From an uncultured virus (IMG/VR IMGVR_UViG_3300044701_002566) (taxonomy: Duplodnaviria > Heunggongvirae > Uroviricota > Caudoviricetes): a DNA stretch of 25,293 nt. Shown here piece after piece: positions 1 to 13,833 of this stretch. Both the position numbers and the translations under genes were made by a program. The notes under the pieces are model-generated. The model saw only the letters and a list, made by a program, of their open reading frames with translations. It was not told the DNA's origin and searched no databases. The DNA lies in IMG/VR virus record IMGVR_UViG_3300044701_002566; one strand, written 5' to 3'. Position 1 is the first letter of the stretch; the number at the start of each line of letters is the position of its first letter.

Positions 1-437
1 ACATTGATCGTAAACCCCTGCCGGTTAGCCTGTTTAATCAGGCTAAGGTTCTCACCTAATGTGAGGCTGTGGTGAGTGTAAGTGTAGGCTTTAAGATGTT
101 TCACGGCGGCGATCATGCCGCGCATGAATGCGCGCGAGATTCTGCCTCCAGTGTGCGGCAGATCGCCAGCTTGATTGTGTCGGAGAGGCATCCCTGCAGG
201 AAGTCGCCTGAGAGCGGCCAGGAAGGCTCTGAAGGGCACGCCACGGCGCCCATCGGTCACCTCCCGCCAGTGGAGCGCGAGAGGCCCACTAGCCGCGTAG
301 CACCCGCCGCCATTCTCAGGAGAGAAAGGACATGACGGCGGGCAGGTGGAGCGACTGGAAGTCGTAACCGGCATCGGACCCGTCTTGACGTTGCTAGAAA
401 CCGGCGTCAGATGAAAAAACAGGTCGGAGAGTTTCAT
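1..437 (-). CDS. GP88-like phage protein with Cys cluster (3' end runs off the window; absent from the ORF track)
   Basis: Manual translation from ATG at 437: MKLSDLFFHLTPVSSNVKTGPMPVTTSSRSTCPPSCPF...GGGCYAASGPLALHW...RHNQAGDL...YTYTHH, open to position 1. The N-x-K-T-G, TCPxxCP, GCYA, RH-x3-GD and YTYTH motifs are typical of this family. Preceded by a CT-rich leader (438-474). Confidence 0.75.
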   Translation of the reverse strand, partial: MKLSDLFFHLTPVSSNVKTGPMPVTTSSRSTCPPSCPFSPENGGGCYAASGPLALHWREVTDGRRGVPFRAFLAALRRLPAGMPLRHNQAGDLPHTGGRISRAFMRGMIAAVKHLKAYTYTHHSLTLGENLSLIKQANRQGFTIN

Positions 438-474
438 GGAGAGAGAGAGAGAGAGAGGGAGAGGGAGAGAGAGG

Positions 475-642
475 TCAGTTCTCGAACGGCTCATCCCATA
501 CGACCGTCTGACCGGAAGCGGTCTGGCGCTGCGCGGGGCGTGTGGGGCGTGTGGGGCGTGTGGGGCTCTGCCAGCGAGGGGACTGAGCGGGCAGACCGTT
601 GGCGCCCATTGGCCAATACCCCATGAGAGTGGTGTCTTCCAT
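475..642 (-). CDS. small hypothetical protein (55 aa) with PTR repeats
   Basis: MEDTTLMGYWPMGANGLPAQSPRWQSPTRPTRPTRPAQRQTASGQTVVWDEPFEN; CT-rich leader like neighbouring genes. Confidence 0.5.
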   Translation of the reverse strand: MEDTTLMGYWPMGANGLPAQSPRWQSPTRPTRPTRPAQRQTASGQTVVWDEPFEN

Positions 643-965
643 GATGAGAGGGAGAGGGAACAGAGCGGCTCAGAGTCATCTCCGATTCGCTGACGTCAGC
701 TTGCCGTCACACCGCCACCACGGCGCCGCATCGTAGGACGGTTTCTCGACTGGCACACTAGGCCGCAGAGTGGGCAGGTTCCAGCCATGGCCGCTTGTCT
801 AGCACTGTTTGCATCCTGCAGACTATCGGCAGTCAAGAATTGAACAGAGTGGTTAGGCTATCTCACCGCACCACGATCACACGCTCTCAGCATGCCGAAC
901 CGTTCGGGCAGGTAGGCTATCTCAACACACCGATGCGGCACCTAGCACGGATCGACGCCACCGCG

Positions 966-984
966 ACGGATTGTCACAATCCGT
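966..984. promoter_or_regulatory. perfect 9-1-9 palindrome overlapping an HLR1-like direct repeat
   Basis: ACGGATTGT-C-ACAATCCGT; also GTCACAAT-CC-GTTGCAAA at 973-990. Confidence 0.55.
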
Positions 985-1015
985 TGCAAAGGTTTCCCCA
1001 TCGGCGAACCGTACT

Positions 1016-1225
1016 GATCACCATTGCTTGTCGATCAGGATTGCTGATCATTCGGGCAGGATTGATCAGTATTGCTTGTCGATCAGGATTGCTGATGTTT
1101 CGACCAGGATTGATCAGTATTGCTTATCTGATAAGGGATGGTGATGTTTCGGGCAGGAACGATAAGGATCCCTTATCGATAAGGAATGCTTATGTTTCGG
1201 CCGGCAACGATAAGCTCAGCTTATG
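1016..1225. repeat. ~48-bp tandem repeat (4 units plus one extra box); each unit has two 17-bp palindromic LysR-type boxes and a 14-bp spacer
   Basis: Units start at 1016, 1064, 1112, 1161 and 1209; box consensus GATMAG-N5-CTKATS, e.g. GATCAGGATTGCTGATC and GATAAGGATCCCTTATC. Confidence 0.9.
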
Positions 1226-1270
1226 ATACAAACGTACTACAGTACAAACGTACTACAGTACAAGTGTACT
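1225..1270. promoter_or_regulatory. three tandem cyanobacterial LexA (SOS) box-like palindromes, 16-bp period
   Basis: GATACAAACGTACT (1225), AGTACAAACGTACT (1241), AGTACAAGTGTACT (1257); cyanobacterial LexA box is AGTAC-N4-GTACT. Confidence 0.75.
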
Positions 1271-1307
1271 ATAAGCTCAGCTTATGTTACAGATAAGCCA
1301 GGCTTAT
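1271..1307. promoter_or_regulatory. two further ATAAG-N5-CTTAT (T-N11-A) boxes
   Basis: ATAAGCTCAGCTTAT at 1271-1285; ATAAGCCAGGCTTAT at 1293-1307. Confidence 0.7.
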
Positions 1308-1345
1308 GTTACGAAATGTTACGAAATGTTACGAAATGTAACGAT
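1308..1345. promoter_or_regulatory. 10-bp-period HLR1/RpaB-like tandem repeat
   Basis: (GTTACGAAAT)x3 + GTAACGAT; HLR1 half-site is (G/T)TTACA(T/A)(T/A) with N2 spacing. Confidence 0.6.
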
Positions 1346-1362
1346 TGCGAATGATTCTCAAT
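1344..1362. promoter_or_regulatory. Fur-box-like 9-1-9 palindrome
   Basis: ATTGCGAAT-G-ATTCTCAAT, one mismatch from a perfect palindrome. Confidence 0.55.
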
Positions 1363-1390
1363 AGCAAGAAGCCTCTGGCTGGGTGTTTAG

Positions 1391-1475
1391 ATACGCCTCC
1401 AGCCGGTTCTCATACGCCTCTAGCCGGTTCTCATACGCCCCTGGCCGGTCCCGGTTTAGGCATCTGGCCGGTTCT
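1391..1475. repeat. 21-bp direct repeats with YRGCCGGTYC core
   Basis: ATACGCCTCCAGCCGGTTCTC (1391), ATACGCCTCTAGCCGGTTCTC (1412), ATACGCCCCTGGCCGGTCCC (1433), plus CTGGCCGGTTCT (~1464). Confidence 0.85.
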
Positions 1476-1769
1476 TCAGTGGCCTCTACGACCCCCAGCG
1501 AACCGGCCTACATAGGCATTCCACATGCCAATGGGCATGTCACCCGGCCTGTAAAGCACATAGCCTCCATCCTCTACTCCCAGCTCAGCGTCATGAAGCC
1601 ACATGCCGCTGCATTTGCCTTCCCCGCTGAAAAGGCCAATTTGCCTTTCTCTATCACGCATGGACAGGCGAACGTGAAACAACACCTCCCGTAGGAGCAC
1701 TGCCTGATAGACGCCTTGCGAGGGAGGAAAATCCTCCCCATTGGGCTGATAGGTGCGGATTGTCACCAT
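1476..1769 (-). CDS. hypothetical protein (97 aa)
   Basis: ORF track; start overlaps the stop of the upstream gene (ATGGTGA). Confidence 0.65.
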   Translation of the reverse strand: MVTIRTYQPNGEDFPPSQGVYQAVLLREVLFHVRLSMRDRERQIGLFSGEGKCSGMWLHDAELGVEDGGYVLYRPGDMPIGMWNAYVGRFAGGRRGH

Positions 1770-1915
1770 TGATCATCCCCTTCACTGTCTTCAATTATCT
1801 CTACGAAATACGGCCCCATGGCCGCATAGGCTTCATGAAGCTCAGCTTCTTCGCCCTGGTGAAGAGTGTAGTCTTCAAAGCCTTCTTCGTTCCAGAAGTG
1901 CCAACAATCAGACAT
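1763..1915 (-). CDS. small acidic hypothetical protein (50 aa)
   Basis: MSDCWHFWNEEGFEDYTLHQGEEAELHEAYAAMGPYFVEIIEDSEGDDQW; tightly packed between its neighbours. Confidence 0.6.
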   Translation of the reverse strand: MSDCWHFWNEEGFEDYTLHQGEEAELHEAYAAMGPYFVEIIEDSEGDDQW

Positions 1916-1918
1916 TGG

Positions 1919-2104
1919 TCAAGCCTCGATGATGCGAAAATCGGGATCATTGTTTCTTTTGATCCATCGACATTGATTGAACTGAGGAAGCACGATGAAC
2001 AGTTTGTCGTGGTGATTCTGTTCGACAATGGCAGTGGTGATGGTGGTGCCGATGCGGCTACGACCTCTGTTGCTGATGGCCAGGATGTTAACAATGTCTT
2101 GCAT
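1919..2104 (-). CDS. small cyanophage-type hypothetical protein (61 aa)
   Basis: MQDIVNILAISNRGRSRIG...VEQNHHDKLFIV...RWIKRNNDPDFRII; start re-assigned to the ATG after the C-rich leader. Confidence 0.7.
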   Translation of the reverse strand: MQDIVNILAISNRGRSRIGTTITTAIVEQNHHDKLFIVLPQFNQCRWIKRNNDPDFRIIEA

Positions 2105-2148
2105 GGTTCTAGGAAGGGTGCGGAGGGTGTGGAGGGTGCGGAGGCCGC

Positions 2149-2394
2149 TCAGGCGGCCTGCAGGTCTTCTTTGCTCCACCGAACGATGGTGGCAACAATG
2201 TCGTGGCTCAGAGGCTCCCACAGGGGCATGGGCAGGCTTCCTTGGCGGCTCATGCAGATGCGGCCATCTTCACGCTTGTGGAGGGCTGCCATGGCTGGCA
2301 GGAAAAGGGCGTCACCGGGCGTGGCTTCCGCGATGAAGCTGGCGATGGCGGACAGGAGCTGGTCTTGGCAGGTCAGTTGATCTTGGCAGGGCAT
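2149..2394 (-). CDS. hypothetical protein (81 aa)
   Basis: MPCQDQLTCQDQLLSAIASFIAE...; start re-assigned downstream of the promoter at 2435-2440. Confidence 0.65.
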   Translation of the reverse strand: MPCQDQLTCQDQLLSAIASFIAEATPGDALFLPAMAALHKREDGRICMSRQGSLPMPLWEPLSHDIVATIVRWSKEDLQAA

Positions 2395-2411
2395 GGCTGG
2401 AAGTAAGTGGT

Positions 2412-2486
2412 GGACCTCTCGGCCCGTTGAACCAACAATACAGACAAAGCCCCCGGCTTTCGGGGGCTGTAACAATTGTTTACAAA
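2412..2486 (-). promoter_or_regulatory. class A early promoter cassette (-10 TATTGT, HLR1-like site, GNRA leader hairpin, embedded terminator-like hairpin)
   Basis: -10 at 2435-2440; GTAACAAT-TG-TTTACAAA at 2469-2486; leader GGGCC-GAGA-GGTCC; hairpin AGCCCCCG-AAAGC-CGGGGGCT. Confidence 0.8.
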
Positions 2487-2520
2487 GGGAAGGTGCTCGC
2501 TGCACCTTCCCCAGGTCGCA

Positions 2521-3531
2521 TCAGGCCGCCAAGGCCAGAGCATGGGCCTTGGTGATGGTGGCAGCTCCAGTGCCCCACCATTGGCTCTCCAAGCGCCGCC
2601 TGGCGGCTTCCAGGTCGTTGCCACGGCCTGCTTCATGCGTCACCCACTCCGTCACGGCATTGTAGGCGCCCCAGTAGGTGCCTACAACGCCTTTGATGTC
2701 GAAGCCGATGCCGTCGCCGGCAAACTTGTTCGCCAGGCTGTCCCACTGGGGCAGATCGCCCAACACCTTCGGGCGAGCAGTGGCCTTGTCGCCTCGCTTG
2801 TCGTTCACCACGCCAGCAAGCTGCTGGCTGAACACATCGCGGCAGTATTGAGCGAACTGAGCAGAGGTGCAGGGCTTTGCGGCCATTGCTTCCAGCTCTG
2901 CCAAGCCGGCAGTGAACTGGCGCCGCTTGATGTCGATGATCTCTGGCAGGCGTTCGATCATGGCGTTGCAGTTGAGCGTGTGGCGAATGCTGATGCGCTT
3001 GCCCTTAGCGTTGGCATCGGAACGATCAGCGAGGCCCAAAGCGGCGCTGAGCGTGTTCTGGCACACCACGCGCACTGGCGTGAAGAGAGTTTGGAAGGCG
3101 ATGGAGCCGTCGTGGCTGGTGGCTCCCACAATGTATTGCTCTATTTCATCGCCCTTCACCACTTCGCGGGTGCTGTCGTTAATGCGAGCCGTGAAGGTGA
3201 CTTTCCGGCCTTTATCAAGCACGCACACGGCGCTCATTTCTGCATCTTCGTGCAGGGCCTCGGCTAGGCGAATGAGCTGTTCGTTCTGGACGATGGTGTA
3301 GCTTTCCTTCTGAACGGAGAGCACTTTTCCATTGTCCCCGCGAGTGATGGCCTGGTAGCCCTCGATGGGCTGGCCAGTGGGATCGAGAATGGGCGTGGAA
3401 AGCACTTCCCAGTCAGCCTGGCCGAGAGCGAATGCTTCACGGGCAGGCATGGTGCCGCCTGCTACATGGCCGAGACCGTGCCAGGCGGCTTGACCATGGA
3501 AGAAAGCACCGGAAGAGAATTGATGAGCCAT
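2521..3531 (-). CDS. DUF932 / LGT_TIGR03299 family phage/plasmid protein (336 aa)
   Basis: AWHGLG, ADWEV, YTIVQNE, TSHDGS, TPVRVVCQNTL, IRHT, GTYWGAYNAVTEW motifs; start re-assigned to MAHQF. Confidence 0.9.
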   Translation of the reverse strand: MAHQFSSGAFFHGQAAWHGLGHVAGGTMPAREAFALGQADWEVLSTPILDPTGQPIEGYQAITRGDNGKVLSVQKESYTIVQNEQLIRLAEALHEDAEMSAVCVLDKGRKVTFTARINDSTREVVKGDEIEQYIVGATSHDGSIAFQTLFTPVRVVCQNTLSAALGLADRSDANAKGKRISIRHTLNCNAMIERLPEIIDIKRRQFTAGLAELEAMAAKPCTSAQFAQYCRDVFSQQLAGVVNDKRGDKATARPKVLGDLPQWDSLANKFAGDGIGFDIKGVVGTYWGAYNAVTEWVTHEAGRGNDLEAARRRLESQWWGTGAATITKAHALALAA

Positions 3532-3556
3532 GGGAAAGAAAAGAGGAAGGGAAAGG

Positions 3557-3643
3557 GCGGGGTCGAGCCGCTTGATGGAGAATTTAGCCTCTATTGCGAG
3601 AAAAGTCAAATGGGGCCGTGGCCGCTTAACGGCCTGTCACACT
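3557..3643 (-). promoter_or_regulatory. class B early sigma70 promoter cassette
   Basis: TTGACT-N17-TAAATT (3609 to 3581); TTAACGGC-CT-GTCACACT at 3626-3643; leader TCAAGCGGCTCGAC. Confidence 0.85.
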
Positions 3644-3945
3644 CAGAAAGTGAGCGTGACGCCAGCGGTGCGCAGGCTCACCACGCGATCAGTGCGGAAG
3701 GAGCGCCAGGCGCCAGCACCCTGCGTGCGAGCGATGCGGAAGTCACGGCAGCGCACCACGTCAGCAGACAGTGCGGCGGTGCCAGTGCCCTTGATCTCCT
3801 GGCGGTCGCGGGGATTGAACTGCATGGTCCGCAAGGAGCCGTCTTCCTTGCGGAAGGTGACGCTCACCACACGGGAGCCGGCGTTGCGCAGGAAGGTGCG
3901 AACGGCCATGGTGCGGGAGTGAGGGAGAAAAGCAGAAGCGTTCAT
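3643..3945 (-). CDS. WYL_2/DUF2693-like SH3 beta-barrel protein
   Basis: VSVTFRKEDGSLRTM...AWRSFRTDRV motifs. Confidence 0.7.
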   Translation of the reverse strand: MNASAFLPHSRTMAVRTFLRNAGSRVVSVTFRKEDGSLRTMQFNPRDRQEIKGTGTAALSADVVRCRDFRIARTQGAGAWRSFRTDRVVSLRTAGVTLTF

Positions 3946-3963
3946 GGGAAGAAAAGAGAGGGA

Positions 3964-4053
3964 AAGCGGTGTCGAGCCGCTTGAAAGTAAAAGTTAGCCC
4001 CTATTGCGAGAAAAGTCAAACGCAACAGAGGCCGGTTCGCGCAGCGTCACACA
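3964..4053 (-). promoter_or_regulatory. class B early sigma70 promoter cassette
   Basis: TTGACT-N17-TAACTT (4019 to 3991); GTCACACA half-site at 4046; leader hairpin AAGCGG-CTCGACA-CCGCTT. Confidence 0.85.
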
Positions 4054-4253
4054 CGCTGACGGCGGCGGCGAAGCTCGTCCCCGTAGGTGCAAGCCTCGTC
4101 GCTGTAGCGACCTTCCGCGATGGGATTCCAGCCGCGCATGGCGGCCTCTGCCTGGCGACAATCACGAGCCGACCAGAGCAGTTCAGCAACGGTCATGGAC
4201 CGAGCCTTCTCCTCCCAGCGAAGGAAGTCGGAAGCGGTGGCGGGGGTGACCAT
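4047..4253 (-). CDS. hypothetical protein (68 aa)
   Basis: ORF flanked by two promoter cassettes; GRYSDEACTYGDELRRR C-terminus. Confidence 0.7.
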   Translation of the reverse strand: MVTPATASDFLRWEEKARSMTVAELLWSARDCRQAEAAMRGWNPIAEGRYSDEACTYGDELRRRRQRV

Positions 4254-4271
4254 GAGAAGGAGATCGAGGGG

Positions 4272-4360
4272 AAGCGGTGTCGAGCCGCTTGAAAGGAAAA
4301 TTAGACCATGGGAGGGGAATCGGTCAACCCCTCCCCCTTGGCTTCACATTTGGTCACAGA
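4272..4360 (-). promoter_or_regulatory. class B early sigma70 promoter cassette
   Basis: TTGACC-N18-TAATTT (4327 to 4298); TTCACATT-TG-GTCACAGA at 4343-4360; same leader hairpin as at 3964. Confidence 0.8.
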
Positions 4361-4601
4361 TGCCCATGAGCATCTCACCCACATAGGTGATGGCGGCATC
4401 GAGGCTCTCCATGGCAGCATCCCGCTCACGGCGAGCCTGGTAGTAGGCATCAGGGCCTTGTGGGTAGAAATCCCTCCCGTGGCACGTTGTAGAGGCGAAC
4501 GCCTCACGGGCTTTCAGGAGGGCATCGTAGGCCGCCGCATACTCGTCGCACAGCGTGGTGCGGCCTGTGCCGTTGAGGTGGAGCGTGGGGATGGTGGTCA
4601 T
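4344..4601 (-). CDS. conserved phage hypothetical protein (85 aa)
   Basis: PTLHLNGT...HGRDFYPQG motifs, a pattern typical of small phage early proteins. Confidence 0.75.
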   Translation of the reverse strand: MTTIPTLHLNGTGRTTLCDEYAAAYDALLKAREAFASTTCHGRDFYPQGPDAYYQARRERDAAMESLDAAITYVGEMLMGICDQM

Positions 4602-4603
4602 GA

Positions 4604-4807
4604 TCAGGCGAGATGGAAGCTGGTGTTGGTGGCCTGGAGGTGGGCGGTGTACTGGTCGTACTGATCCTGCCAGTAAGCAGCCCTTGCGAGCAGCTTCTCG
4701 AAGTAGGCAGGGTCAGGCACGCCAGCGGCGAGGTAGGTATTGGCGGTGTCGGCCCAGAACTTGCGCTGAAGCACAACGTTGTCGCCGTGGTTAAGGGAGG
4801 CGGTCAT
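4604..4807 (-). CDS. hypothetical protein (67 aa)
   Basis: MTASLNHGDNVVLQRKFW...; start re-assigned after the promoter and leader repeat. Confidence 0.65.
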   Translation of the reverse strand: MTASLNHGDNVVLQRKFWADTANTYLAAGVPDPAYFEKLLARAAYWQDQYDQYTAHLQATNTSFHLA

Positions 4808-4840
4808 GGGACGGAGGGGACGGAGGGGACGGAGGGAACG

Positions 4841-4916
4841 GAGGTTCTCGCCTCGTTGAACCAACAATACAGCCTGAGGCCCCCAGGGCAGGGGGCTTGT
4901 TACAACGCTTAACAGT
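4841..4916 (-). promoter_or_regulatory. class A early promoter cassette
   Basis: CGTTGAACCAACAATACAG at 4854-4872; GCCCCC-N6-GGGGGC hairpin; GTTACAAC-GC-TTAACAGT at 4899-4916. Confidence 0.8.
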
Positions 4917-5278
4917 CAGCAGAAGGTGGTGCGGCCATTGGTGTAGGCGTACCACTCCTTCTTCCCTGCAGACGCTTCCCGGCGGTTGGCCTCCCACTTG
5001 TCGGGCAGCTCTGCGCTGATGATTTGAGTGCCTGCAGGCACGTTGATGGGGCCGACCCCCATCGAGATGTTGAACTGATCCATCACCGGACCGTTGATGT
5101 ACCAAGCACGGGACACCTTGTAAAGGCCAAAGCCCTCCAGCTCGCGGGTGCCATTGATGGGAAAGGGCTCGTGCCAGTCAGGCAGCACGATGCGAAAGGC
5201 AAGCCTTTCAAGCCCTTCAAAGGCGGTCCAGGAGTCGTCGGTGATGAGCTGATCGACAGTGTGGTTGATGGTGGCCAT
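4916..5278 (-). CDS. hypothetical protein (120 aa)
   Basis: MATINHTVDQLITDDSWTAFEG...; start re-assigned. Confidence 0.75.
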   Translation of the reverse strand: MATINHTVDQLITDDSWTAFEGLERLAFRIVLPDWHEPFPINGTRELEGFGLYKVSRAWYINGPVMDQFNISMGVGPINVPAGTQIISAELPDKWEANRREASAGKKEWYAYTNGRTTFC

Positions 5279-5298
5279 GGTCTGAAAGAAGGAAGGGT

Positions 5299-5373
5299 GG
5301 ACCTCGCGGCCCGTTGAACCAACAATACAGCCTGAGCCCCCTCCCATCGACCCTTGTTACAACTCTTCACAAT
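5299..5373 (-). promoter_or_regulatory. class A early promoter cassette
   Basis: CGTTGAACCAACAATACAG at 5312-5330; GTTACAAC-TC-TTCACAAT at 5356-5373; leader GGGCC-GCGA-GGTCC. Confidence 0.8.
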
Positions 5374-5576
5374 CAGAGCATGGGCTTCCACCATGGGGGC
5401 TCCTGGCCGTTCATCACCACCAGCCGGCGACGCTCCAGCAGGAAGGCCATGCTCTTTGCTTGGCGCTCCAGTTCTTCCCTGTCGGCGCCAGTGTGCAGCA
5501 GCGACCAGCGTGGGCGAGCATTAGGCAGCAAGCAGCTCACCCATAGGGAGTAGCCTGCGGGATCAGCGACTGCCAT
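5373..5576 (-). CDS. hypothetical protein (67 aa)
   Basis: MAVADPAGYSLWVSC...; overlaps the stop of the upstream gene. Confidence 0.6.
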   Translation of the reverse strand: MAVADPAGYSLWVSCLLPNARPRWSLLHTGADREELERQAKSMAFLLERRRLVVMNGQEPPWWKPML

Positions 5577-5760
5577 CCTGCTCTTGGGCGACAGTGGCGG
5601 GAAGGTGCTGCAGGCGGCAGTAGCGTTCGGGGTGGATGTTCCTGCAGTCCCAGTAGTCTGCAGGGCGATCCTGCTGTGGGCCGGTGGCCACCGTGGCGGC
5701 GGCAATGATCACGGCGAGCCAGATGGCTCCCGAGAGAACGAAGGGCAATGGTGAGCGCAT
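5563..5760 (-). CDS. small membrane-anchored protein (65 aa)
   Basis: Hydrophobic N-terminus (LPFVLSGAIWLAVIIAAATVA) followed by a Cys pair. Confidence 0.7.
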   Translation of the reverse strand: MRSPLPFVLSGAIWLAVIIAAATVATGPQQDRPADYWDCRNIHPERYCRLQHLPATVAQEQDGSR

Positions 5761-5786
5761 GGCGGCAGAAGGGCAACGCTTCCCTC

Positions 5787-5838
5787 ACAATAGGAAAGAA
5801 GCCTGCCCTTCCAGCCTGCTGTCACAATTGTTTACCAG
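5787..5838 (-). promoter_or_regulatory. class A-type early promoter
   Basis: TATTGT at 5792 to 5787; GTCACAAT-TG-TTTACCAG at 5821-5838, 28 bp away as in the other class A copies. Confidence 0.7.
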
Positions 5839-5910
5839 CCGGTTCTCTGCTGGCCGGTCCTAAGCAGCAAGCTCGGTTCACAGTAACCTGCGCTACAGTG
5901 CCGCCAAGGC

Positions 5911-5940
5911 AAGAAAAAGGCGCCCCTTACGGAGCGCCCC
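5911..5940 (-). terminator. rho-independent terminator
   Basis: GGCGCTCC-GTAA-GGGGCGCC-TTTTTCTT on the minus strand. Confidence 0.8.
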
Positions 5941-6019
5941 GGTTCGTTCTCTCCACCATCTTGCCTGCCCCATTGCCCCTGTGCAGCCTTTGTCAGCAAA
6001 GGCGGATAGGTCATTGTGC

Positions 6020-6235
6020 TTACGGCTTGAGCGTCTTGATGGAGAACGGAGCGAGCCTGCCCTTACGGAGGCGTTCAGCGCGAACAAACTGCTGCGAGCC
6101 GGTTTTCGTGTTGCGAATCTTAATGAGGCCAGTGTCAGTCTTTTGAGGCACCACCACATAGGCTCCCCGCCATGCCTGAAACAGGATGTCGAATAGATCA
6201 ACGGCATCACCTGGCAAGAAAGATGGCTGGTTCAT
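6020..6235 (-). CDS. hypothetical SH3-like protein (71 aa)
   Basis: FLPGDAV...LIKIRNTKTGSQQFVRAERL pattern. Confidence 0.65.
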   Translation of the reverse strand: MNQPSFLPGDAVDLFDILFQAWRGAYVVVPQKTDTGLIKIRNTKTGSQQFVRAERLRKGRLAPFSIKTLKP

Positions 6236-6244
6236 GCGGGCAGT

Positions 6245-6266
6245 AAAAAGGGCGCCGATGGCGCCC
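6245..6266 (-). terminator. rho-independent terminator after rlpA
   Basis: GGGCGCC-ATC-GGCGCCC-TTTTT. Confidence 0.7.
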
Positions 6267-6301
6267 CTGTTGATTGATCCTCACCAGCGAAGCATAGAGC
6301 C

Positions 6302-6658
6302 TCAAGCCCTGCTGAAGCACACCCTGGCCACACCCTGTCCTGGGCTTGCAATGCGAGAGAATGCCCCGTAGCTCAAGTCGAGCACCCTGCCGCCAATGTA
6401 AGGGCCTCGATCGGCCACTACCACTTCAGTGGAGCGGCCGGTGTCTTGATTAACAACGCGCAGGCGTGTGCCGAACGGCAAGGAGCGATGGGCTGTGATG
6501 GCAGCATGAGGGTTCATGGCTTGGCCGTTTGCCATGGTCCGCCCCGCGAAGCCATCACCTTGTCCGTACCAGCTCGCAGAGCCGCAAGTGGCGGCCTGCG
6601 CTGGTAAGGAGGCAATGGAAAGGGAGGAAAGGGAAGCGAGAATGATTGTGCGAAGCAT
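6302..6658 (-). CDS. rlpA: RlpA-like DPBB lytic transglycosylase with signal peptide
   Basis: ASWYG, GRTMANG, TAHRSLPFGTRLRVVN, DRGPY, LDLSYGAF motifs; N-terminal signal ending AQA. Confidence 0.92.
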   Translation of the reverse strand: MLRTIILASLSSLSIASLPAQAATCGSASWYGQGDGFAGRTMANGQAMNPHAAITAHRSLPFGTRLRVVNQDTGRSTEVVVADRGPYIGGRVLDLSYGAFSRIASPGQGVARVCFSRA

Positions 6659-6740
6659 TTAGAGAGAGAAGTAGTTAGAGAGCCTGCCAGGTCGCCCTGG
6701 CAATGCCCACTGTATCAGAACGAGCCTGCCCTCTGCCTCG

Positions 6741-6947
6741 TGGTATGATTTGCAAGCAACTCGGCCCTGAGGCTTAACCGCCTCCAGCAATGCTGCCGTG
6801 AGGGTGGGCGGGCTTGATTGGTCTTGTGCTGCCGTAAGGAGCACAGCCGGATGACATGGCCGGTGAGGGCGACCAATCCCTGAGCAGCAGGAGAGAGCTT
6901 ATCGGAGGGTTGTAAAGAGGAAGGGGCCGCAAGGCCCCTTTTCTTTT
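6741..6947 (+). ncRNA. candidate structured ncRNA (~190 nt), 6S-like architecture
   Basis: Extended -10 TGGTATGAT at 6741-6749; nested stems (6756-62/6907-13, 6791-96/6884-89, 6816-23/6871-78); terminator at 6921-6947; no plausible ORF. Confidence 0.6.
6921..6947 (+). terminator. rho-independent terminator
   Basis: AAGGGGCC-GCAA-GGCCCCTT-TTCTTTT. Confidence 0.85.
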
Positions 6948-7055
6948 ATGATGCTGACGGTAGGTAGGCAGATGATCCTTCTCGTCTGTGAGCAATCAGC
7001 TCTCGGCTCACCAGGACTTCTCGTCATAAAGAAGGCCCCTTGCGGGGCCTTTTTC
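6947..7055 (+). ncRNA. candidate small RNA (~95 nt)
   Basis: -10 TATGAT at 6947-6952; hairpins GCAGATGA/TCGTCTGT and GTGAGC/GCTCAC; ends in the terminator at 7028-7055. Confidence 0.45.
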
Positions 7056-7062
7056 TTTATGA
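7024..7062. terminator. bidirectional rho-independent terminator
   Basis: TCATAAAGAAGGCCCC-TTGC-GGGGCCTTTTTCTTTATGA. Confidence 0.85.
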
Positions 7063-7506
7063 AAACTCTCCAACGATGTAGTCGTAGGTGCCTTCTCCAT
7101 TGCCTATACAATGCTGTCCGTCCACTTGATGGCGAAGCAGGAAGTTTGGCCCCCGTTTGCTCCTGTTGAGCTGGTGAAACTGTTCCTCACTGCAATAGCC
7201 CCAACCGTCGGGCCTGCTCCACCAGTCAGACTCCCAGTCAGTCTTTGTAGTAGAGCGCCGTTCAGTGACGGTTTTCACAAAGTCAGGCAAGGCTACGGAG
7301 TCTTCGTATTCATCAACAATGGACGATCCATCGTTGATGGCTTCAATGATGTGTTGAAGCACGTCCTTCCATGTGTAGATAAACTCCTCTGGATACACAT
7401 GAAGACTGAAGCACCAGCCATAGCTGGACTTGCCCAAGTGTAAGCCTTCTTCTTGATGCCCGCAGTGCGAACATGCAGGCTTGCGGAGGTAGAAGTTGGT
7501 TCCCAT
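7057..7506 (-). CDS. conserved phage protein with CxxC (149 aa)
   Basis: MGTNFY...CSHCG...LHLGKSSYGWCFSLH...GEFS, a recurrent phage protein pattern. Confidence 0.8.
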   Translation of the reverse strand: MGTNFYLRKPACSHCGHQEEGLHLGKSSYGWCFSLHVYPEEFIYTWKDVLQHIIEAINDGSSIVDEYEDSVALPDFVKTVTERRSTTKTDWESDWWSRPDGWGYCSEEQFHQLNRSKRGPNFLLRHQVDGQHCIGNGEGTYDYIVGEFS

Positions 7507-7841
7507 CAGACCTCACCTCCCGAGATGGAAGCAGCGTAAGCGGCAAGGTAGGCCAGTTGATCGTCGCCCGTAGGCGCGTCAGTGACCACTTCAGCGTGCT
7601 GCTCTCTGTGCTTGCCATGAGCAGCATGAAGCTGACAGAGCAGCTCCTTCACCGTGGCCTTGTGCGGGCCGAGGGCTCCGCCCTCAGACAAGACTTCCAG
7701 AGTGGTGATCCACTCTTCCAGCTTCCTCACTGGAAGCGACCAGGCCACCGTGGGCCTGTTGCTGGACATCACAAGCTGGCCGTTCTTCGTAAAGGCACTG
7801 ATGCCTTGATTGTGCTGGTAAACCGTGGAAAAGCTAGACAT
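7506..7841 (-). CDS. hypothetical protein (111 aa)
   Basis: Start re-assigned to MSSFSTVYQ downstream of the promoter at 7866-7894. Confidence 0.7.
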   Translation of the reverse strand: MSSFSTVYQHNQGISAFTKNGQLVMSSNRPTVAWSLPVRKLEEWITTLEVLSEGGALGPHKATVKELLCQLHAAHGKHREQHAEVVTDAPTGDDQLAYLAAYAASISGGEV

Positions 7842-7862
7842 GGTTGCTGCCTGAGGGACTCC

Positions 7863-7894
7863 CCCATTGTGGGGACAATGGGAGCACAGGTCAA
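7863..7894 (-). promoter_or_regulatory. sigma70 promoter with overlapping 8-4-8 inverted repeat
   Basis: TTGACC-N17-CACAAT; CCCATTGT-GGGG-ACAATGGG at 7863-7882. Confidence 0.65.
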
Positions 7895-7906
7895 TGGGAA
7901 TGGCCA

Positions 7907-8290
7907 TCAGCCCTGCTTATCATTCACCACGGCTCCCTTTCCGCTCACCACCTTCGTCTGTTGAAGCCTCTGCGGACGCCAGCCTGAGGCAATGAAGTGG
8001 CACGGTCCCAGCGGCTCCAGCACGCACCACTGCGCCGTCCTAGCCACTACTGCTTGGTAACCCTGCCGCTCTGCCTTCGTGAGCGGCCTGGGCGGCTCTG
8101 CCAGTGCAGCACGCGCCCAGTCGGCCACTTCTTCCAGATCAGCCAGGTCGTTGGTGGCAATCACGAAGTGACGGCCTCGCCTTTGGAGCTTCTCCCATGC
8201 AGGATGCGGGCACTCCTTGGCGACGGCTTCAAAGTCGGCCTGCAACACTGGCGGCAGGCAAATGCGAGCCCGTGGCGGCAGGCTACTCAT
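7907..8290 (-). CDS. hypothetical protein (127 aa)
   Basis: ORF track; coupled to the upstream stop. Confidence 0.7.
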   Translation of the reverse strand: MSSLPPRARICLPPVLQADFEAVAKECPHPAWEKLQRRGRHFVIATNDLADLEEVADWARAALAEPPRPLTKAERQGYQAVVARTAQWCVLEPLGPCHFIASGWRPQRLQQTKVVSGKGAVVNDKQG

Positions 8291-8729
8291 CTTCCGACTC
8301 TCCTTGGCAGTCCAGTTCCTCCAAGCCTTCCAGCACGGCCTGTCCCAAGTTGTCTTTCAGCATTTCCCGCCAGTGGGTGTCACCACCAAAGCTCCCCACT
8401 TCTGCGGCGGTGCGAATGGCGTGTCTGATGAGGGAAAGATCCCCGGCAGTGAGAGCAATGGCTTCAGCGTCGCCATGGAACTTCCTCTGCTGCAGCAAGT
8501 TGCAATGGAGCTGAGCCCACTTGCCCAGGCTCCAGAGCGCCACGCTCCGCAACACTTCGTCTCCATACTTCTCAATCAGTTTCTCAATGGTGATGCCCAG
8601 TCCTGCTGGAATACCAATGGTGTCGGGGTCGTTCAAGTGGTCCGAGATGCCTTCTCGGATGGCCTGCCGTCGTGGGGACTTGGCCTCATGGCAAGCCTTC
8701 AGAAAGCTGTCAACGCTGTCGTAGTTCAT
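8283..8729 (-). CDS. hypothetical protein (~148 aa)
   Basis: Likely start MNYDSVDSF. Confidence 0.7.
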   Translation of the reverse strand: MNYDSVDSFLKACHEAKSPRRQAIREGISDHLNDPDTIGIPAGLGITIEKLIEKYGDEVLRSVALWSLGKWAQLHCNLLQQRKFHGDAEAIALTAGDLSLIRHAIRTAAEVGSFGGDTHWREMLKDNLGQAVLEGLEELDCQGESEDE

Positions 8730-8776
8730 GGACAAGAGAGGGAACTCTGGCAGTCTGTTCGTTCGTGGGCACCCTG

Positions 8777-9583
8777 TCAAGCCTCTTCGTCTTCATCCTC
8801 TTCGTCTTCCCCATCGTCCTCGTCCCATTGTTGCGCAGGCAACATCGGCCTGCTGTTGCCAATGGGTTCACCATCCTCGTCCAGTTCAACAACGGCTTCA
8901 ATCGCCCCTGCCCGATCCTGAGCATTAGTCTCCGCTTGGCTGATCTTCTTCACTTCTTGACTCAACTGGCTCAAGAACTTCTTGTAGCTCTTCTCTTCGC
9001 CATCTTGAGACCTGGGCCTGGTATCAAACAAACCAAGCAGGCGAGCCTGCTGCTCCAAGCAGCCCTTGGCAACAGTAAGGAAGGAGCTTTCACCAGCCAA
9101 GGAGTGCTCTTCAATGGTGACAATTTCATCCCCATTGCGCTCTTGCACACGCTTCACAACTTTGCGCTTACTGGCCTCAAAGCTCTCCAGAGCCTTTGCC
9201 TTTAGAAGATCCTGTTCATCAAGAAGACGCGCTCTCCATTGGTCAGCAGTGGCAAGGATGCCATCAATGTACGTCTGCCGAATGTGCTGTCTATCTGCAT
9301 TGACAGTTTCCTTGCTGAGCTTGAATACCTTGGCAATCTGCGCATTGCTCAAGTTGGCAGCAAGAAGCTCGGCAGTGGCATAACGCCTAATGCGAGTGTT
9401 CTCTTTGTCGAACACTTGACCAAGTTCACGACGATTGCGAAGCCTATCCACTTGTTCAATGGATAGGCCCGCTTTCACTAATACTTCCAGGCTGTACTTC
9501 AGCAGGCTTTCTTCGTCCTTGAATTGCTTTTCAGGGACTGTACGTTTCTTCCTGTGATTAACGCCGCCTGGAATGTTTGTCAT
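8777..9583 (-). CDS. HTH protein with acidic tail, possibly terminase small subunit-like
   Basis: LSNAQIAKVFKLSKETVNADRQHIR HTH, helical region, ARLLGL motif, D/E-rich C-terminus. Confidence 0.55.
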   Translation of the reverse strand: MTNIPGGVNHRKKRTVPEKQFKDEESLLKYSLEVLVKAGLSIEQVDRLRNRRELGQVFDKENTRIRRYATAELLAANLSNAQIAKVFKLSKETVNADRQHIRQTYIDGILATADQWRARLLDEQDLLKAKALESFEASKRKVVKRVQERNGDEIVTIEEHSLAGESSFLTVAKGCLEQQARLLGLFDTRPRSQDGEEKSYKKFLSQLSQEVKKISQAETNAQDRAGAIEAVVELDEDGEPIGNSRPMLPAQQWDEDDGEDEEDEDEEA

Positions 9584-9921
9584 TGTGACTTAGGAAGAGA
9601 GAATACAAGGCTTTCCTTCTGGGAGATTATAGTAAAGTCCCCCATGTCATCAGCTAGTTTCTTGCGTTCTTTGAGAGCAATTTCAAGATCCCTCACTTCT
9701 TCGCCATAGTCCTTTTCAGAACGCTTTTGAATGTGAACCTTGGCTTCGTCAGAGTTGATGCTTTCAAGACCCTCGTTTCGCATTGCTTCAAGCAGTTCTG
9801 CTTTCAGCTCTTTCTCAAGAGTCTCAAGCCGCTTCTTGTCTGCAACGACGAGCGCAAGATCGTGCGTCAAGTCAGCGATAGTGTCAGGAAGGTCCATGGT
9901 GAAGGGAAGTGGGCTCGTCAA
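9580..9921 (-). CDS. coiled-coil hypothetical protein (Gp157-like pattern)
   Basis: KRLETLEKELKAELLEAMRNEGLESI; ATGA coupling at both ends. Confidence 0.7.
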   Translation of the reverse strand: MTSPLPFTMDLPDTIADLTHDLALVVADKKRLETLEKELKAELLEAMRNEGLESINSDEAKVHIQKRSEKDYGEEVRDLEIALKERKKLADDMGDFTIISQKESLVFSLPKSQ

Positions 9922-10154
9922 TTGTCGCCAGTATCAAAGCCTTTGTCAATCAATTCCACCATCTCTTCATAGCTTCCCCGCCAGTGGCGTTCCCCATCAG
10001 CAGGATTCCTGGCGCCATAGAGCATTCTGGCTGCAGGCATAGGCCCCTTTGCTGGAATCGAGAAACCATGATGCTGCAGGGCTTCAATGCTGATGCCAGC
10101 GTGTTCCAAGGATGGGAGCCTGTCAGGAGCCTGTGGGCGACGAGGCTTAAGCAT
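9918..10154 (-). CDS. hypothetical protein (78 aa)
   Basis: Start re-assigned to MLKPRRPQAPD; -10-like TAAACT at 10182 to 10177. Confidence 0.65.
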   Translation of the reverse strand: MLKPRRPQAPDRLPSLEHAGISIEALQHHGFSIPAKGPMPAARMLYGARNPADGERHWRGSYEEMVELIDKGFDTGDN

Positions 10155-10199
10155 TGTTTCAATGATTCGCCTCAGTAGTTTAGAGGGGAATTGTTGAGA

Positions 10200-10475
10200 A
10201 GATCGCTTTGACTGGAACGCTTGGGGCTCCCTCTCGTAGCGATCTAGCAAAAGTTGCTTAAGGAAGATCAAGGGTGGTTTAAGAAAGCGCCTATGAACAA
10301 GCTCGCTTGGGCTCGCCTGCGCGAAGGCGCTTTCTCGCGGAGGTTTTGCAGCCCCCTTTCCCATTGCCCCACCGTCTCGTCAGGAGCGCCGCAGGACGCA
10401 CTATGCAGCTCGATGCGTGACGTTCCGCAATCCCAGGCGCGTTAGATGCGCGAGGGCCTGCTCGGGAAGATTGTA
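10200..10475 (-). other. structured non-coding segment (candidate ncRNA or origin)
   Basis: -10 TACAAT at 10475 to 10470; perfect stems 10282-92/10325-35 (11 bp) and 10200-07/10238-45 (8 bp) with a shared loop motif. Confidence 0.4.
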
Positions 10476-10588
10476 AAGCCCCCGTCAAGCGAAAAAGGAC
10501 AGTTGAAACAAGTGGCACATCAAGGGAAGGTCAATGGGCAGAGAAGGCTCTTTGTGGGTATGATGCCAGAGTTGTTTCCTCAACCACC

Positions 10589-10777
10589 ATGTTCACCAAG
10601 TCACTGATCGAAGCGGTGGCTACAGCACTCAAAAGTCACAACGGTGCAGAGAGTGACCCCCATGAGTTCTGGCACGACGATGCCATCGTTGCCATTATCG
10701 AGGTAGCTCAATGGCTCCGCAGTCAAGACCTATGGAGCGCAGCCCATGCCCTCTCACTGGAGATCAACAAGCGATGA
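10589..10777 (+). CDS. hypothetical protein (62 aa)
   Basis: ORF track; -10 TATGAT at 10559; AIIEVAQWLR motif. Confidence 0.7.
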   Translation: MFTKSLIEAVATALKSHNGAESDPHEFWHDDAIVAIIEVAQWLRSQDLWSAAHALSLEINKR

Positions 10778-11205
10778 CGCTCACCATGTTTGAAAACCAC
10801 CAGCCCGGTGAGCCCTATGTGCTCACCCGCAAGCAGTTCATTCGGTTTGCAGGTTTGCCAGTCAATGCCACCGCCGAAGACGTCAAGGTGGCTATGTGGG
10901 CGGCGATTGTCTGTTGGGAAGCGGGTCGCACCTTCAATCCGCTGTCGAGCCTGTGCCACAGCAGCCTGCGGATGGACACCAGCAATGGCTGGATGGTCTG
11001 GGAGTACCAGACCACCAGCGGCACGCTGCTCCGCGCCGCTGAGTGCCGGACGTTTCTCACCCAGCCTGAGCCTGGCTATCCAGGTGTCGGGTGCTCGGAC
11101 CAGTTTCCCGAGCCTGAGTTCACGGTCATTATCCCAGTGGACCGTGACCAGCCGGGGCGTTACCACTACCAGCAGCTTCGTGAAGGAGGGGCGTTTGATG
11201 CCTAA
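10774..11205 (+). CDS. hypothetical protein (143 aa)
   Basis: ATGA-coupled start MTLTMFENH. Confidence 0.65.
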   Translation: MTLTMFENHQPGEPYVLTRKQFIRFAGLPVNATAEDVKVAMWAAIVCWEAGRTFNPLSSLCHSSLRMDTSNGWMVWEYQTTSGTLLRAAECRTFLTQPEPGYPGVGCSDQFPEPEFTVIIPVDRDQPGRYHYQQLREGGAFDA

Positions 11206-11425
11206 CAGGCTATCGGCCTGCTGCAAGGCAGCCTGCACCATTGCAGGCCGCACCACGCACTACTACGTCTGCGAGGCTTGCAACAAGCCCTGCGACGTAG
11301 CGGCAATCACCCGCCTTCGCCGTAATGGTCCCAAGCCTGGTCAGTCCGTTGAAGCATGGCTCTATGGCAAAGACAAGAACTGCCAAAAAGAGCGTGATGC
11401 AAGGCAATGGAAAAGGGGGCGCTAG
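11198..11425 (+). CDS. small Cys-rich (Zn-binding) protein (75 aa)
   Basis: SACCKA...YYVCEACNKPCD. Confidence 0.7.
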   Translation: MPNRLSACCKAACTIAGRTTHYYVCEACNKPCDVAAITRLRRNGPKPGQSVEAWLYGKDKNCQKERDARQWKRGR

Positions 11426-11734: not shown

Positions 11735-11740
11735 GGTGCT

Positions 11741-13702
11741 TCAGAAAAACTCATCATAGTTGATGGACTCTTCTTGTTTCTCAGGTTCAAAGTCAAGAAC
11801 AGGCACTTCATAATCCCATGAATGGTACAGCCTTGTCTTCTGGCCTTCAGGGCCATCTTGGAAACTGCTGGTGATTAGCCCTTGACGCCTTGCCACTTCC
11901 AGCAACTTGCCGGTCGAGCCAGTATCAAAGCTGCCGCACAAGCTCGCCACTTGCTGCTTTGTGAAGCGTTCGCTCTTGCGCATTGTCACGGCATTTACCA
12001 CCCTGTCCAGTTCTTCCAGGGAGCCTTCCATTGGCCCTGCATAGCTCCATCCATAGTTCAGCGAATCACGCTGAAGCAAGTGCTTGCCAGCCAGTCCGCT
12101 GCGGCTCTTTAACCATTCCAGAACGAACTGATTGGGGTTGTAGTTGTTCTCTTGACGATAGAGCTTCACAACTTCACTTACATTGTCCTTGAAGCTGCTG
12201 CTATCTCGCAGCCCTCCAGTCTTGTTCAAGTGGTGGAGAATGACAATGGAGCAGCGATAGTCGTTTGCCATGTCCCGCAAGCCGTAGAGCACATCACCAG
12301 CATTGCTCTTTGTGAGATCGACATTCATCCCAGCAAGGCAAGCGGTGAGACTGTCAATCACTACAAACAATGGCCGGTTCTTGCGAATGTAGTTCTCTAG
12401 TTGCTGCATGTGAGCGAATCGCCAAGTCTCCCAAAACACAATGTCACCCGGATTCAATCCAGCTTCCTGGTAGCCAATGATGCTCAGCTTCTCACTGGTA
12501 TCAGTGAGCGGTTCATCGGCTGAGATGATCAAAGACTTACCTTTCATACATCTTCTTCCGCTCCAGTTCTGGCCGAGAGCTACATTGAGCGCCCAGTTGT
12601 ACATCATAGTTGTTTTCCCGACTCCCCCTTCTGCGGCAAGCAAGGTTACACTACCAAGCGGAACAATGCCAGCAATAAGCCATTCTCTTGCGGCGTCAGA
12701 AGATGCAATGGTAAGAGCATCAACGGCTTCAATCTCTTCCCTGCCATACACTCTGGCACGAGCTTCCGTTACAATCTTGTCAATGTTTTGCTGCCCCATC
12801 TTTACACCACGCTGCTCAAGCCAGTTGCCAGTTTCGTAGGCAATGCGAGCATCGTTAGCATAAAGGCCAACAAAGTTTTCAATGGTGGCAATGATCTCTT
12901 CGTAAGAAGGCTTGCCATCACTATTCGCGTGGCGGTTCTTGGGGACAATGGATGAAAGCAAGTCGTCTTTACTTGCGCCCTCGCCAATGTAATCTCCCAA
13001 GTCGTAACCATTGCCCGATGGGAGATTGTCCCACTCCCAAGATCGAGGATCGGCATAGAGCCACTGCGAGCCAGGATTATCAGCCGCTACTTCAGCCATG
13101 AAGGCCACACCCTGTTCGTCCCTGTCAGGACAGAGCACAAGCTGATAGCCCCTGAAGAGCGTTGAGTAGTCACCATTGGTGCGATACTGCTTCGACCCGC
13201 CCAGGAAGGTCACACAGGGGATCTCCAGTGCCCATACGGACTGACAAGTCAGCTCACCTTCAACGACGAAGATTGGCAGGCCAGTCTTCTTGCTCAGTTC
13301 CGTGGCTTCGTGGTAGTAGTAAGGCAGGATGGATGCCTTTACTTCTTGCAGTTGCGTTTTGTGGTTCGCGCTGCCCTGCTCAATAGTGGGGAACTCCTGC
13401 CAGATTTGCTTACTGCCTGAAAGGTCATTGCGCTTGACGATGACCACCTTCTCGCGCTTCTTGTTTTCGTAAGGAAATGTGTATTCCCCCGGATCTCTTG
13501 GCGGCTTTTCCCATCGCACCAAAGGGGCAAGCGCATCGCGCACTTCTGCTCTATGTGCAGGGGATGGATCGTGCCAGCAGTTGAAGGCGCCAGTGGCCTT
13601 GTTCACTGAAAAGTCATTGCCGCCGCAGGCAGGGCACAGAAACTTACCCTTCTCCTTGCTGGGCTCCAGTTGGTCGAGGAAGTCGAGGATCGAAAACGTC
13701 AC
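11741..13702 (-). CDS. primase-helicase (Zn finger + TOPRIM + RecA-type AAA_25 helicase)
   Basis: CPACGG...NCWH; VVEGE and DRDEQG (TOPRIM); AEGGVGKT Walker A; VVIDS Walker B; ILHHLNK. Confidence 0.9.
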   Translation of the reverse strand: MTFSILDFLDQLEPSKEKGKFLCPACGGNDFSVNKATGAFNCWHDPSPAHRAEVRDALAPLVRWEKPPRDPGEYTFPYENKKREKVVIVKRNDLSGSKQIWQEFPTIEQGSANHKTQLQEVKASILPYYYHEATELSKKTGLPIFVVEGELTCQSVWALEIPCVTFLGGSKQYRTNGDYSTLFRGYQLVLCPDRDEQGVAFMAEVAADNPGSQWLYADPRSWEWDNLPSGNGYDLGDYIGEGASKDDLLSSIVPKNRHANSDGKPSYEEIIATIENFVGLYANDARIAYETGNWLEQRGVKMGQQNIDKIVTEARARVYGREEIEAVDALTIASSDAAREWLIAGIVPLGSVTLLAAEGGVGKTTMMYNWALNVALGQNWSGRRCMKGKSLIISADEPLTDTSEKLSIIGYQEAGLNPGDIVFWETWRFAHMQQLENYIRKNRPLFVVIDSLTACLAGMNVDLTKSNAGDVLYGLRDMANDYRCSIVILHHLNKTGGLRDSSSFKDNVSEVVKLYRQENNYNPNQFVLEWLKSRSGLAGKHLLQRDSLNYGWSYAGPMEGSLEELDRVVNAVTMRKSERFTKQQVASLCGSFDTGSTGKLLEVARRQGLITSSFQDGPEGQKTRLYHSWDYEVPVLDFEPEKQEESINYDEFF

Positions 13703-13833
13703 GCGACATGGCGAGAGGCAATGTCCATGATGCCACGGGCGTCAACAGGATGGCTGATAAGCAAGGCTTATGGGCAATGGTGTGGACAATGGCAGGGAAG
13801 CCGCTATTGTGGCCCTGTTCCCCGATGCCTCTC

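Follow-up and report, generated by a model that had tools for sequence, protein, structure and literature searches.

A gene-free island of stacked, host-type regulator boxes in a freshwater siphovirus related to Synechococcus phage S-CBS4: a possible landing pad for host regulators

The DNA analysed here is a stretch of 25,293 nucleotides from an uncultured Caudoviricetes virus (IMG/VR record IMGVR_UViG_3300044701_002566), called the window below, and its subject is a gene-free island near the left end of the window that is built from tandem repeats and palindromes resembling binding sites of host transcription regulators. The window belongs to a freshwater siphovirus, a relative of Synechococcus phage S-CBS4. 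The primase/helicase that it encodes shares 58% identity with that of S-CBS4 across 98% of the length, its genes run in the S-CBS4 order but reversed (tail fibres, endolysin, thyX, dcd, exonuclease, Sak, primase/helicase and DUF932), and freshwater metagenome runs contain near-identical DNA. A DNA-level search of a phage isolate collection gave no match to the window, and the nearest phage record (G001) begins at window position 4025 and so does not include the island portion. Two minus-strand genes bound the gap without genes (about 495/680 to 1475) in which the island lies; the gap is wider than a first-pass annotation of this DNA had stated. Its features and the two genes that flank it are as follows.

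963..987, unstranded: palindrome with 12-nt arms and a GGATTGT-C-ACAATCC core (inverted repeat, 92% complementary), at the left edge of the island
1015..1224, unstranded: array A, four 48-bp units with two ATMAG-N5-CTKAT palindromes each
1225..1270, unstranded: array C, three (R)GTAC-N4-GTACT palindromes resembling LexA boxes (sites 1225, 1241 and 1257; 16-bp period)
1271-1285 and 1293-1307, unstranded: two more A boxes, the second overlapping the start of array B
1306..1345, plus strand: array B, three exact copies of ATGTTACGAA and a degenerate fourth, HLR1-like direct repeats with a period of 10
1344..1362, unstranded: box D, a 9-1-9 palindrome with a GCGAAT-G-ATTCTC core resembling a Fur-family box, its arms complementary at 8 of 9 positions
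1391..1476, plus strand: array E, four 21-nt direct repeats (ATACGCCYCYRGCCGGTYCYY) starting at 1391, 1412, 1433 and 1456
1476..1769, minus strand: flanking gene upstream of the island, 97 aa, without known family, its stop codon abutting array E
3..494, minus strand: flanking gene downstream of the island, DUF7227 (Pfam E=1.6e-48), truncated by the window start

The five classes of tandem or palindromic boxes cover 348 of the 462 nt between 1015 and 1476 (75%). Motif counts were compared with 100 shuffles and with the values expected across the whole window. ATMAG-N5-CTKAT occurs 14 times with at most one mismatch where 1.95 are expected, RGTAC-N4-GTACT gives 5 strand-matches (0.38 expected) and GCCGGTTC is found 7 times (0.76 expected); none of the 100 shuffles reached any of these counts, and the count of three for ATGTTACGAA was reached in two of them. 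The first-pass annotation had described a gene-free segment of stacked box arrays, and all five classes were recovered in their places and above chance. Ten of the eleven A boxes that it had counted are confirmed, eight being exact and two carrying one mismatch within 1034-1307, and the eleventh (1017-1031) is degenerate. The first eight (at 1034, 1065, 1082, 1113, 1131, 1162, 1179 and 1210) have centre-to-centre spacings that alternate between 17 and 31 bp, and a tandem repeat finder (TRF) reports 3.9 copies of the 48-bp unit at 1015-1200. A terminator-like match at 1233-1262 was rejected, as it is the LexA-box array folding on itself. Two open reading frames (ORFs) drawn over the island (795..1226 and 1383..1694, both on the plus strand) have no Pfam or PHROG match, and the numbers of 16-bp and 10-bp units differ among relatives in a way that a reading frame would not tolerate, which argues that the island is non-coding. 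Rfam and tRNA scans of the DNA gave no match.

The first-pass annotation had also predicted that related phages would carry syntenic islands with kept motifs and diverging spacers, and such islands were found. An exact 20-mer of array B matched 18 viral-contig loci, namely the same phage once, four syntenic islands and 13 near-identical contigs of an unrelated family. The latter 13 were set aside, as they hold a different GTTAC-rich repeat region without the other island boxes. A degenerate pattern of the junction GCTNATGTTACRAAATGTTA at 1271-1307, which is kept in relatives, matched 41 metagenome loci and seven loci in genome contigs, none of the seven being an island. Together the window, the four viral-contig loci and the 41 metagenome loci make 46 candidate loci, and 31 of these hold at least three motif classes and represent 25 distinct islands. 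Among the distinct islands the copy numbers range over 2-16 for A, 2-8 for B, 0-5 for C and 0-7 for E; in the close relative L042 the A boxes number 16 and the C boxes 5, where the window has 10 and 3. The box positions, which were preselected by the search pattern, are kept, and the N5 centre and flanks hold 0.2-0.4 bits. Usually A comes first and B second, followed by D or an AT-rich stretch and finally by E, which adjoins the 97-aa gene. In L035, L060 and the complete genome G344, array B is inverted relative to the 97-aa gene or absent, the orientation of array E relative to that gene is unchanged, and further repeat classes are present. A 22-nt stretch of the palindrome at 963-987 is likewise found in the relatives L051 and L041. 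Of 47 related loci, 20 have a homologue of the 97-aa gene beside the island. DUF7227 stands downstream in 9 of the 47, L042 has DUF7178 in its place and L015 has GP88, and the distance from the arrays to the next start codon varies from 340 to 1445 bp in the window and its relatives.

Five complete relatives of 73-75 kb, whose TerL is 75-76% identical to that of S-CBS4, carry tandem LexA-like boxes, and in all five the island lies 8-11 kb from terL. In the 69 kb of S-CBS4 itself neither the island nor any of its arrays occurs, whether at the syntenic position or anywhere else, so the lineage can do without the island. An unannotated homologue of the 97-aa gene spans the end and start of the S-CBS4 record (L001 29215-29421 and L002 1 to about 125), and the record therefore appears to have been opened inside a gene.

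Several relatives contain repeat classes that the window lacks. At about 2300-2400 of L044, some eight GGTTAAGRA units (reverse complement CTTAACCY) with an 11-bp period flank two LexA-like boxes and occupy the place of the extra HLR1-like repeats of other islands. CTTAACCY is the repeat of the cyanobacterial Pho box (PMC1906773). An extra array with a period of about 24 bp (ATAAAGAA-YNG-GCGCGG type, 3-8 copies) lies to the left of the A array in G004, L052 and L046 and was seen at L026 6400-6500 and L052 1128-1240; the corresponding place in L041 holds an inverted repeat whose arms, about 45 nt each, match perfectly. At 6690-7130 of G344 (L251) there are TATGCGCATA-type palindromes with about five copies of GTTCCGCAT.

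To compare the boxes with host sequences, host-type genomes were taken from the phylum of a cyanobacterial metagenome-assembled genome match and then from the family of G229, with form-IA RuBisCO, csoS1 and sizes of 1.0-3.9 Mb. They are probably picocyanobacteria of the Prochlorococcus/Synechococcus/Cyanobium type. The RlpA-like phage protein, used as query, singled out no particular host genomes. Two of the five genomes first chosen (G006 and G012, 64-65% GC) were dropped as not host-like because they gave no RuBisCO match and had a different lexA box; the latter is of CGAAC-N4-GTTCC type, not of GTAC type (L107, L108).

The A boxes have a host counterpart before csoS1. This gene opens the carboxysome-rbcLS operon, and in 30 of the 31 genomes in which its start could be located the region before it holds exactly one AT.A[GA]-N5-[CT]T.AT element, 123-129 nt upstream of the start (loci L130-L132 and L145-L173), where chance would give an estimated 0.014 per 230-nt upstream region. 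The element is mostly ATAAG-N5-CTTAT, and high-GC genomes have the ATCAG, ATGAG and CTGAT variants that also occur in the phage; the site of G229 matches window 1112-1128 except for a single spacer base. The A boxes have the 5-N5-5 palindromic layout and the T-N11-A geometry of RbcR/CbbR-like operators, and the motif of RbcR, a LysR-type regulator, is described with this 5-N5-5 layout and with activation from about 90 nt upstream of the transcription start site (PMC13249358). Each of three host-type genomes has one strong LysR-family gene, which in G229 is the single such gene. The palindrome upstream of csoS1 is a strong candidate for the operator of an RbcR-type regulator, and the LysR likeness proposed in the first-pass annotation becomes more specific than it had been. 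Across whole host genomes the A-box pattern was found 6 times against 1 in the control and an estimated 3 expected, and four of the six, as judged from ORF lists, apparently fall within ORFs. An operator of this kind would stand no more than some 100 nt before a transcription start, whereas the A arrays of the island are 340-1445 bp from the next start codon and no promoter-like site was found near them; the sole promoter-proximal copies are a pair outside the island, described further below.

For the C boxes the host counterpart lies upstream of lexA, where 24 of 30 host-type genomes have RGGTACAnnTGTATTG. The core GTACAnnTGTA is common to these sites and to the phage C boxes, which are fully symmetric. 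In box D one base of the window copy breaks the symmetry, and relatives have the half-sites swapped or the perfect GAGAATCATTCTC. TGAGAATNATTCTCA, of GAGAAT-N-ATTCTC type, was found with at most one mismatch at four sites in five genomes against none in the controls. All four adjoin feoB (twice), znuA/znuB or hupE, and an inverted repeat of the Fur-family 7-1-7 type, as in box D, is thus present at host metal-uptake genes. The likeness of these two classes to LexA and Fur boxes, as first noted, is borne out in host genomes on both counts. Beyond the island and its relatives, tandem AGTAC-N4-GTACT boxes with a 16-bp period were seen in 49 further viral contigs of 37-61% GC (L201-L250; L250 is a simple repeat). 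Fur-like GAGAATNATTCTC boxes were also seen in 15 of the 50 loci L201-L250, 14 of them besides the window's own contig, and L214 has 12 LexA-like and 5 Fur-like boxes within 1.4 kb.

Array B consists of GTTACGAA-AT repeats with a 10-bp period, and the HLR1 element, the site of RpaB, is described as two 8-nt direct repeats (G/T)TTACA(T/A)(T/A) that are 2 nt apart (PMC6525291). Each repeat of the window deviates from this consensus once, with G for A at position 6, and perfect consensus copies GTTACAAA are present in L015, L035 and L060. In the host genome G147 the HLR1 pattern was matched upstream of an hli-type gene and of psbD, and the psbD site was matched again in G324.

Array E, whose 21-bp GCCGG repeats the first-pass annotation had not assigned to a regulator, has no such host counterpart. 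It is found in most relatives (88 instances) and is the most constant part of the island, and its motif is rarer in host genomes than in the control, both singly (21 against 66) and in tandem (41 against 97), so that its interpretation as a host motif was rejected. Its repeats may instead point to a replication origin, in which the 21-bp repeats would be iterons for a phage initiator such as the primase/helicase, the low-GC stretch would unwind and the host boxes would be accessory modulators. Like the iteron origins of phages and plasmids, the island has four to seven phage-specific direct repeats, whose 21-bp period falls within the 17-22 bp of iterons and which stand beside an A+T-rich stretch. 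Positions 1306-1375 have 36% GC against 55% for the window, whose lowest-GC 70-bp stretch falls inside the island, and the island is the only large repeat-rich non-coding region of the window. By eye, a stretch of about 70 bp beside the E repeats of G003, G004 and L052 is almost all A/T, and the repeats of G344 have AT-rich spacers. We nevertheless regard an origin as improbable. S-CBS4 has orthologous replication genes, with a primase/helicase at the 58% identity given above, yet neither repeats nor island; there is no initiator gene nearby, the primase/helicase being about 10 kb off; and the E core is nearly identical although the primase/helicases of the phages are only about 57% identical. 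The extremes of GC skew in G344 (9.5 and 72.5 kb) track gene orientation and not the island at 6.5-7.4 kb, the window contains no match to the DnaA box consensus TTWTNCACA, and other box classes make up the greater part of the island.

A second pair of positions outside the island bears on which proteins may bind the A boxes.

13744..13771, unstranded: pair of A-type boxes in the divergent region between the primase/helicase gene (11741..13702, minus strand) and a small RHH-like ORF
13834-14067, plus strand: small RHH-like ORF (Pfam RHH_1 E=0.14; beta-alpha-alpha model, pLDDT 61.5)

Beyond the pair, a -35-like TGGACA (13783-13788) and a -10-like TATTGT (13805-13810) were recognised by eye. RHH proteins bind repeat arrays and this ORF adjoins two A-type boxes, which might suggest that the island holds operators for phage proteins only, with a coincidental likeness to host sites. 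Such an explanation is highly unlikely, as there are four independent motif classes, every one with a match among host promoter elements. Moreover, the RHH homologue is retained in G003 and S-CBS4, where the promoter beside it has GGCTTAA-type repeats instead, while the island of G003 has standard A boxes, and S-CBS4 has the RHH gene and no island. The S-CBS4 homologue of the ORF lies in a stretch on the opposite strand of which gp081 is annotated. A search of five phage records (three complete) for LysR-HTH, Trans_reg_C (OmpR-type), FUR and LexA DNA-binding domains gave none, and the control genomes gave matches.

A role in DNA handling, as a pac/cos site, an injection pause or a partition-type centromere, was also weighed. 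Repeat arrays of centromeres resemble the island in architecture, and contig G003 begins within the island. The nearest structural analogue is the injection-stop (iss) region of phage T5, an untranslated region of 1662 bp with repeats and palindromes in conserved order and eight host DnaA boxes, described as essential (10.1101/866236). Both regions are repeat-rich, keep their order among relatives while the neighbouring genes vary, and hold multiple boxes for host proteins. The HNH endonuclease gene inserted between array E and the 97-aa gene of L015 (2472-3053, minus strand) recalls the HNH insertion between T5 repeat regions. The island differs from the T5 region so described in that it does not lie in a terminal repeat at the boundary of first-step transfer, has no DnaA boxes, is dispensable, and has boxes for several host transcription regulators. 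Pac and cos sites lie at or beside the terminase genes, and the island is 8-11 kb from terL in each of the five complete relatives. Two of these, G341 and G344, have direct terminal repeats (127 bp as measured in G344), the island of G344 being internal. Contigs of two metagenome runs, likely sources of this DNA, span 479-2160 and cross the island unbroken, and the ORFs scanned showed no gene of ParA/ParB type. With its absence from S-CBS4 and the lack of a DnaA box in the window, a landmark of this kind appears very unlikely, and the injection-stop, packaging and origin alternatives of the first-pass annotation are all weakened.

The gene context of the island suggests a further explanation, namely that bound host regulators act in cis as a checkpoint which gates transcription from an early operon, ending at the 97-aa gene, into the downstream block, through a roadblock or a promoter at the edge of an array, according to the carbon, light, DNA-damage and metal state of the host. 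The island stands between co-directional genes, and boxes of host type would suit a sensor no less than a sponge. Contig G002, which carries window 1-12061, continues on the same strand with a block of DUF7227, ERF, dNMP kinase, RusA, MazG, an NrdR-like zinc ribbon, dCTP deaminase (the second in the contig) and sigma-70. The sigma-70 family gene (regions 1.2, 2 and 3; L023) is at 5163-6155 on the minus strand, the strand of the genes that flank the island. The pair at 13744-13771 stands just upstream of promoter-like hexamers (13744-13810), host Pho boxes are reported in cyanophage genomes, and HLR1 in cyanophage genomes is mentioned in PMC6525291. A checkpoint in cis is possible but doubtful. 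Within 1-2600 no sigma-70-like promoter was found where 1.3 are expected, the next start codon is 340-1445 bp off at a variable distance, and the gene that follows is inconstant. In G344 the island (6.5-7.4 kb) follows the 97-aa gene and only two genes remain before transcription converges. The orientation of array B is not kept, and 10-16 LysR-type boxes with up to five LexA boxes are more than one promoter needs.

Other observations on the window's genes are recorded here. A (GA)17 run and several 9-bp tandem repeats (GGGGCGTGT, AGGGTGCGG and GGGACGGAG) are found at 439-473, 535-566, 2115-2144 and 4808-4844, at or near the starts of small minus-strand genes, and the (GA) run codes for the Leu/Ser/Pro-rich N-terminus of the DUF7227 protein. 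A 120-aa protein without known family (4916-5278, minus strand), with an all-beta model of pLDDT 67 and no Foldseek match at E<=0.001, has homologues in the island carriers G344, G004, L016, L045, L046 and L065, and none was found in S-CBS4. Among the ORFs scanned, no auxiliary genes of photosynthesis or the Calvin cycle were seen.

We tentatively favour the reading of the island as a landing pad for host regulators that would act mainly by titration. The conserved but rapidly evolving arrays match host promoter elements of carbon fixation, SOS and metal uptake as well as the published RpaB consensus. Tandem copies of host operators on the phage chromosome would load the global regulators of the host, and we infer from these matches that host regulators bind the island and that titration follows. 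The landing pad would comprise about ten LysR-type boxes of the carboxysome/RuBisCO operon (up to 16 in relatives), an HLR1-like array, LexA boxes and a Fur/Zur-type box, together with PhoB Pho boxes in one relative and phage-specific 21-bp repeats. As the phage genome multiplies, the arrays may draw regulators off host promoters; the activation of the carbon-fixation operon would be lowered by their loss, and light-stress, SOS and metal-uptake genes would be derepressed. Sequestration is the most likely main effect because the sites are numerous, near-ideal, dense, far from start codons and without a fixed downstream gene, and titration is further favoured by the variable copy number and orientation of the boxes. 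Many strong sites off promoters, in numbers that vary between close relatives, are what a decoy array would look like.

Several points weigh against this reading. The host genomes are stand-ins for the host of the phage, chosen by size, GC and RuBisCO type. Of the six lexA upstream regions without the consensus box, five carry a divergent variant containing GTAC/GTAT. The HLR1 identity proposed for array B in the first-pass annotation holds as a fit to the published consensus but has weak, anecdotal support in host genomes, where the pattern was matched 8 times against 11 in the reversed control, a scan of the family was likewise without enrichment, and none of 24 psbA/psbD upstream regions came within two mismatches of HLR1. 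The pair of A boxes in the promoter region at 13744-13771 suggests that the phage may use the A-box host factor in cis. To titrate an activator such as PhoB would seem harmful to the phage, and phage proteins of unrecognised fold could bind some of the boxes. Array E is not explained by the sponge idea and, with the low-GC or AT-rich stretch beside it, looks like an iteron origin.

Titration by decoy sites is known from chromosomal DnaA-titrating loci, from plasmid operator titration and from synthetic decoys, and the island is like such decoy arrays in having many predicted high-affinity sites off promoters, with copy number as the evolving variable. LexA-controlled phages carry the operator of the host regulator in phage promoters, and the Pho boxes and HLR1 elements of cyanophage promoters are likewise host binding motifs on phage DNA. 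Those promoters have one or a few sites, whereas in the island at least four regulators are each represented by 3-16 tandem copies, stacked in a gene-free region at a distance from start codons. A full-text literature search found no description of a natural phage-borne DNA decoy for several regulators.

The takeover of the host by cyanophages is usually explained by proteins, the products of auxiliary metabolic genes. The island suggests a route without proteins, by which the viral DNA, through its sequence, would recruit or drain the few global regulators of the host. With somewhat more reserve than the landing pad itself, we propose that the replicating phage chromosome may serve as a sponge for several regulators, namely the RbcR-type activator, RpaB, LexA and Fur/Zur, with PhoB in some relatives, and so reprogramme the carbon fixation, high-light protection, SOS and metal uptake of the host by DNA sequence alone. 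The tandem LexA-like boxes of the 49 further viral contigs, 14 of which also carry Fur-like boxes, suggest that such a strategy may be widespread. If true, the island would correspond, as a DNA element, to the psbA, hli and CP12 genes of other cyanophages. As a by-product for host biology, the comparison yields a candidate RbcR-type operator at a fixed distance upstream of the carboxysome-rbcLS operon in the main primary producers of ocean and lakes.

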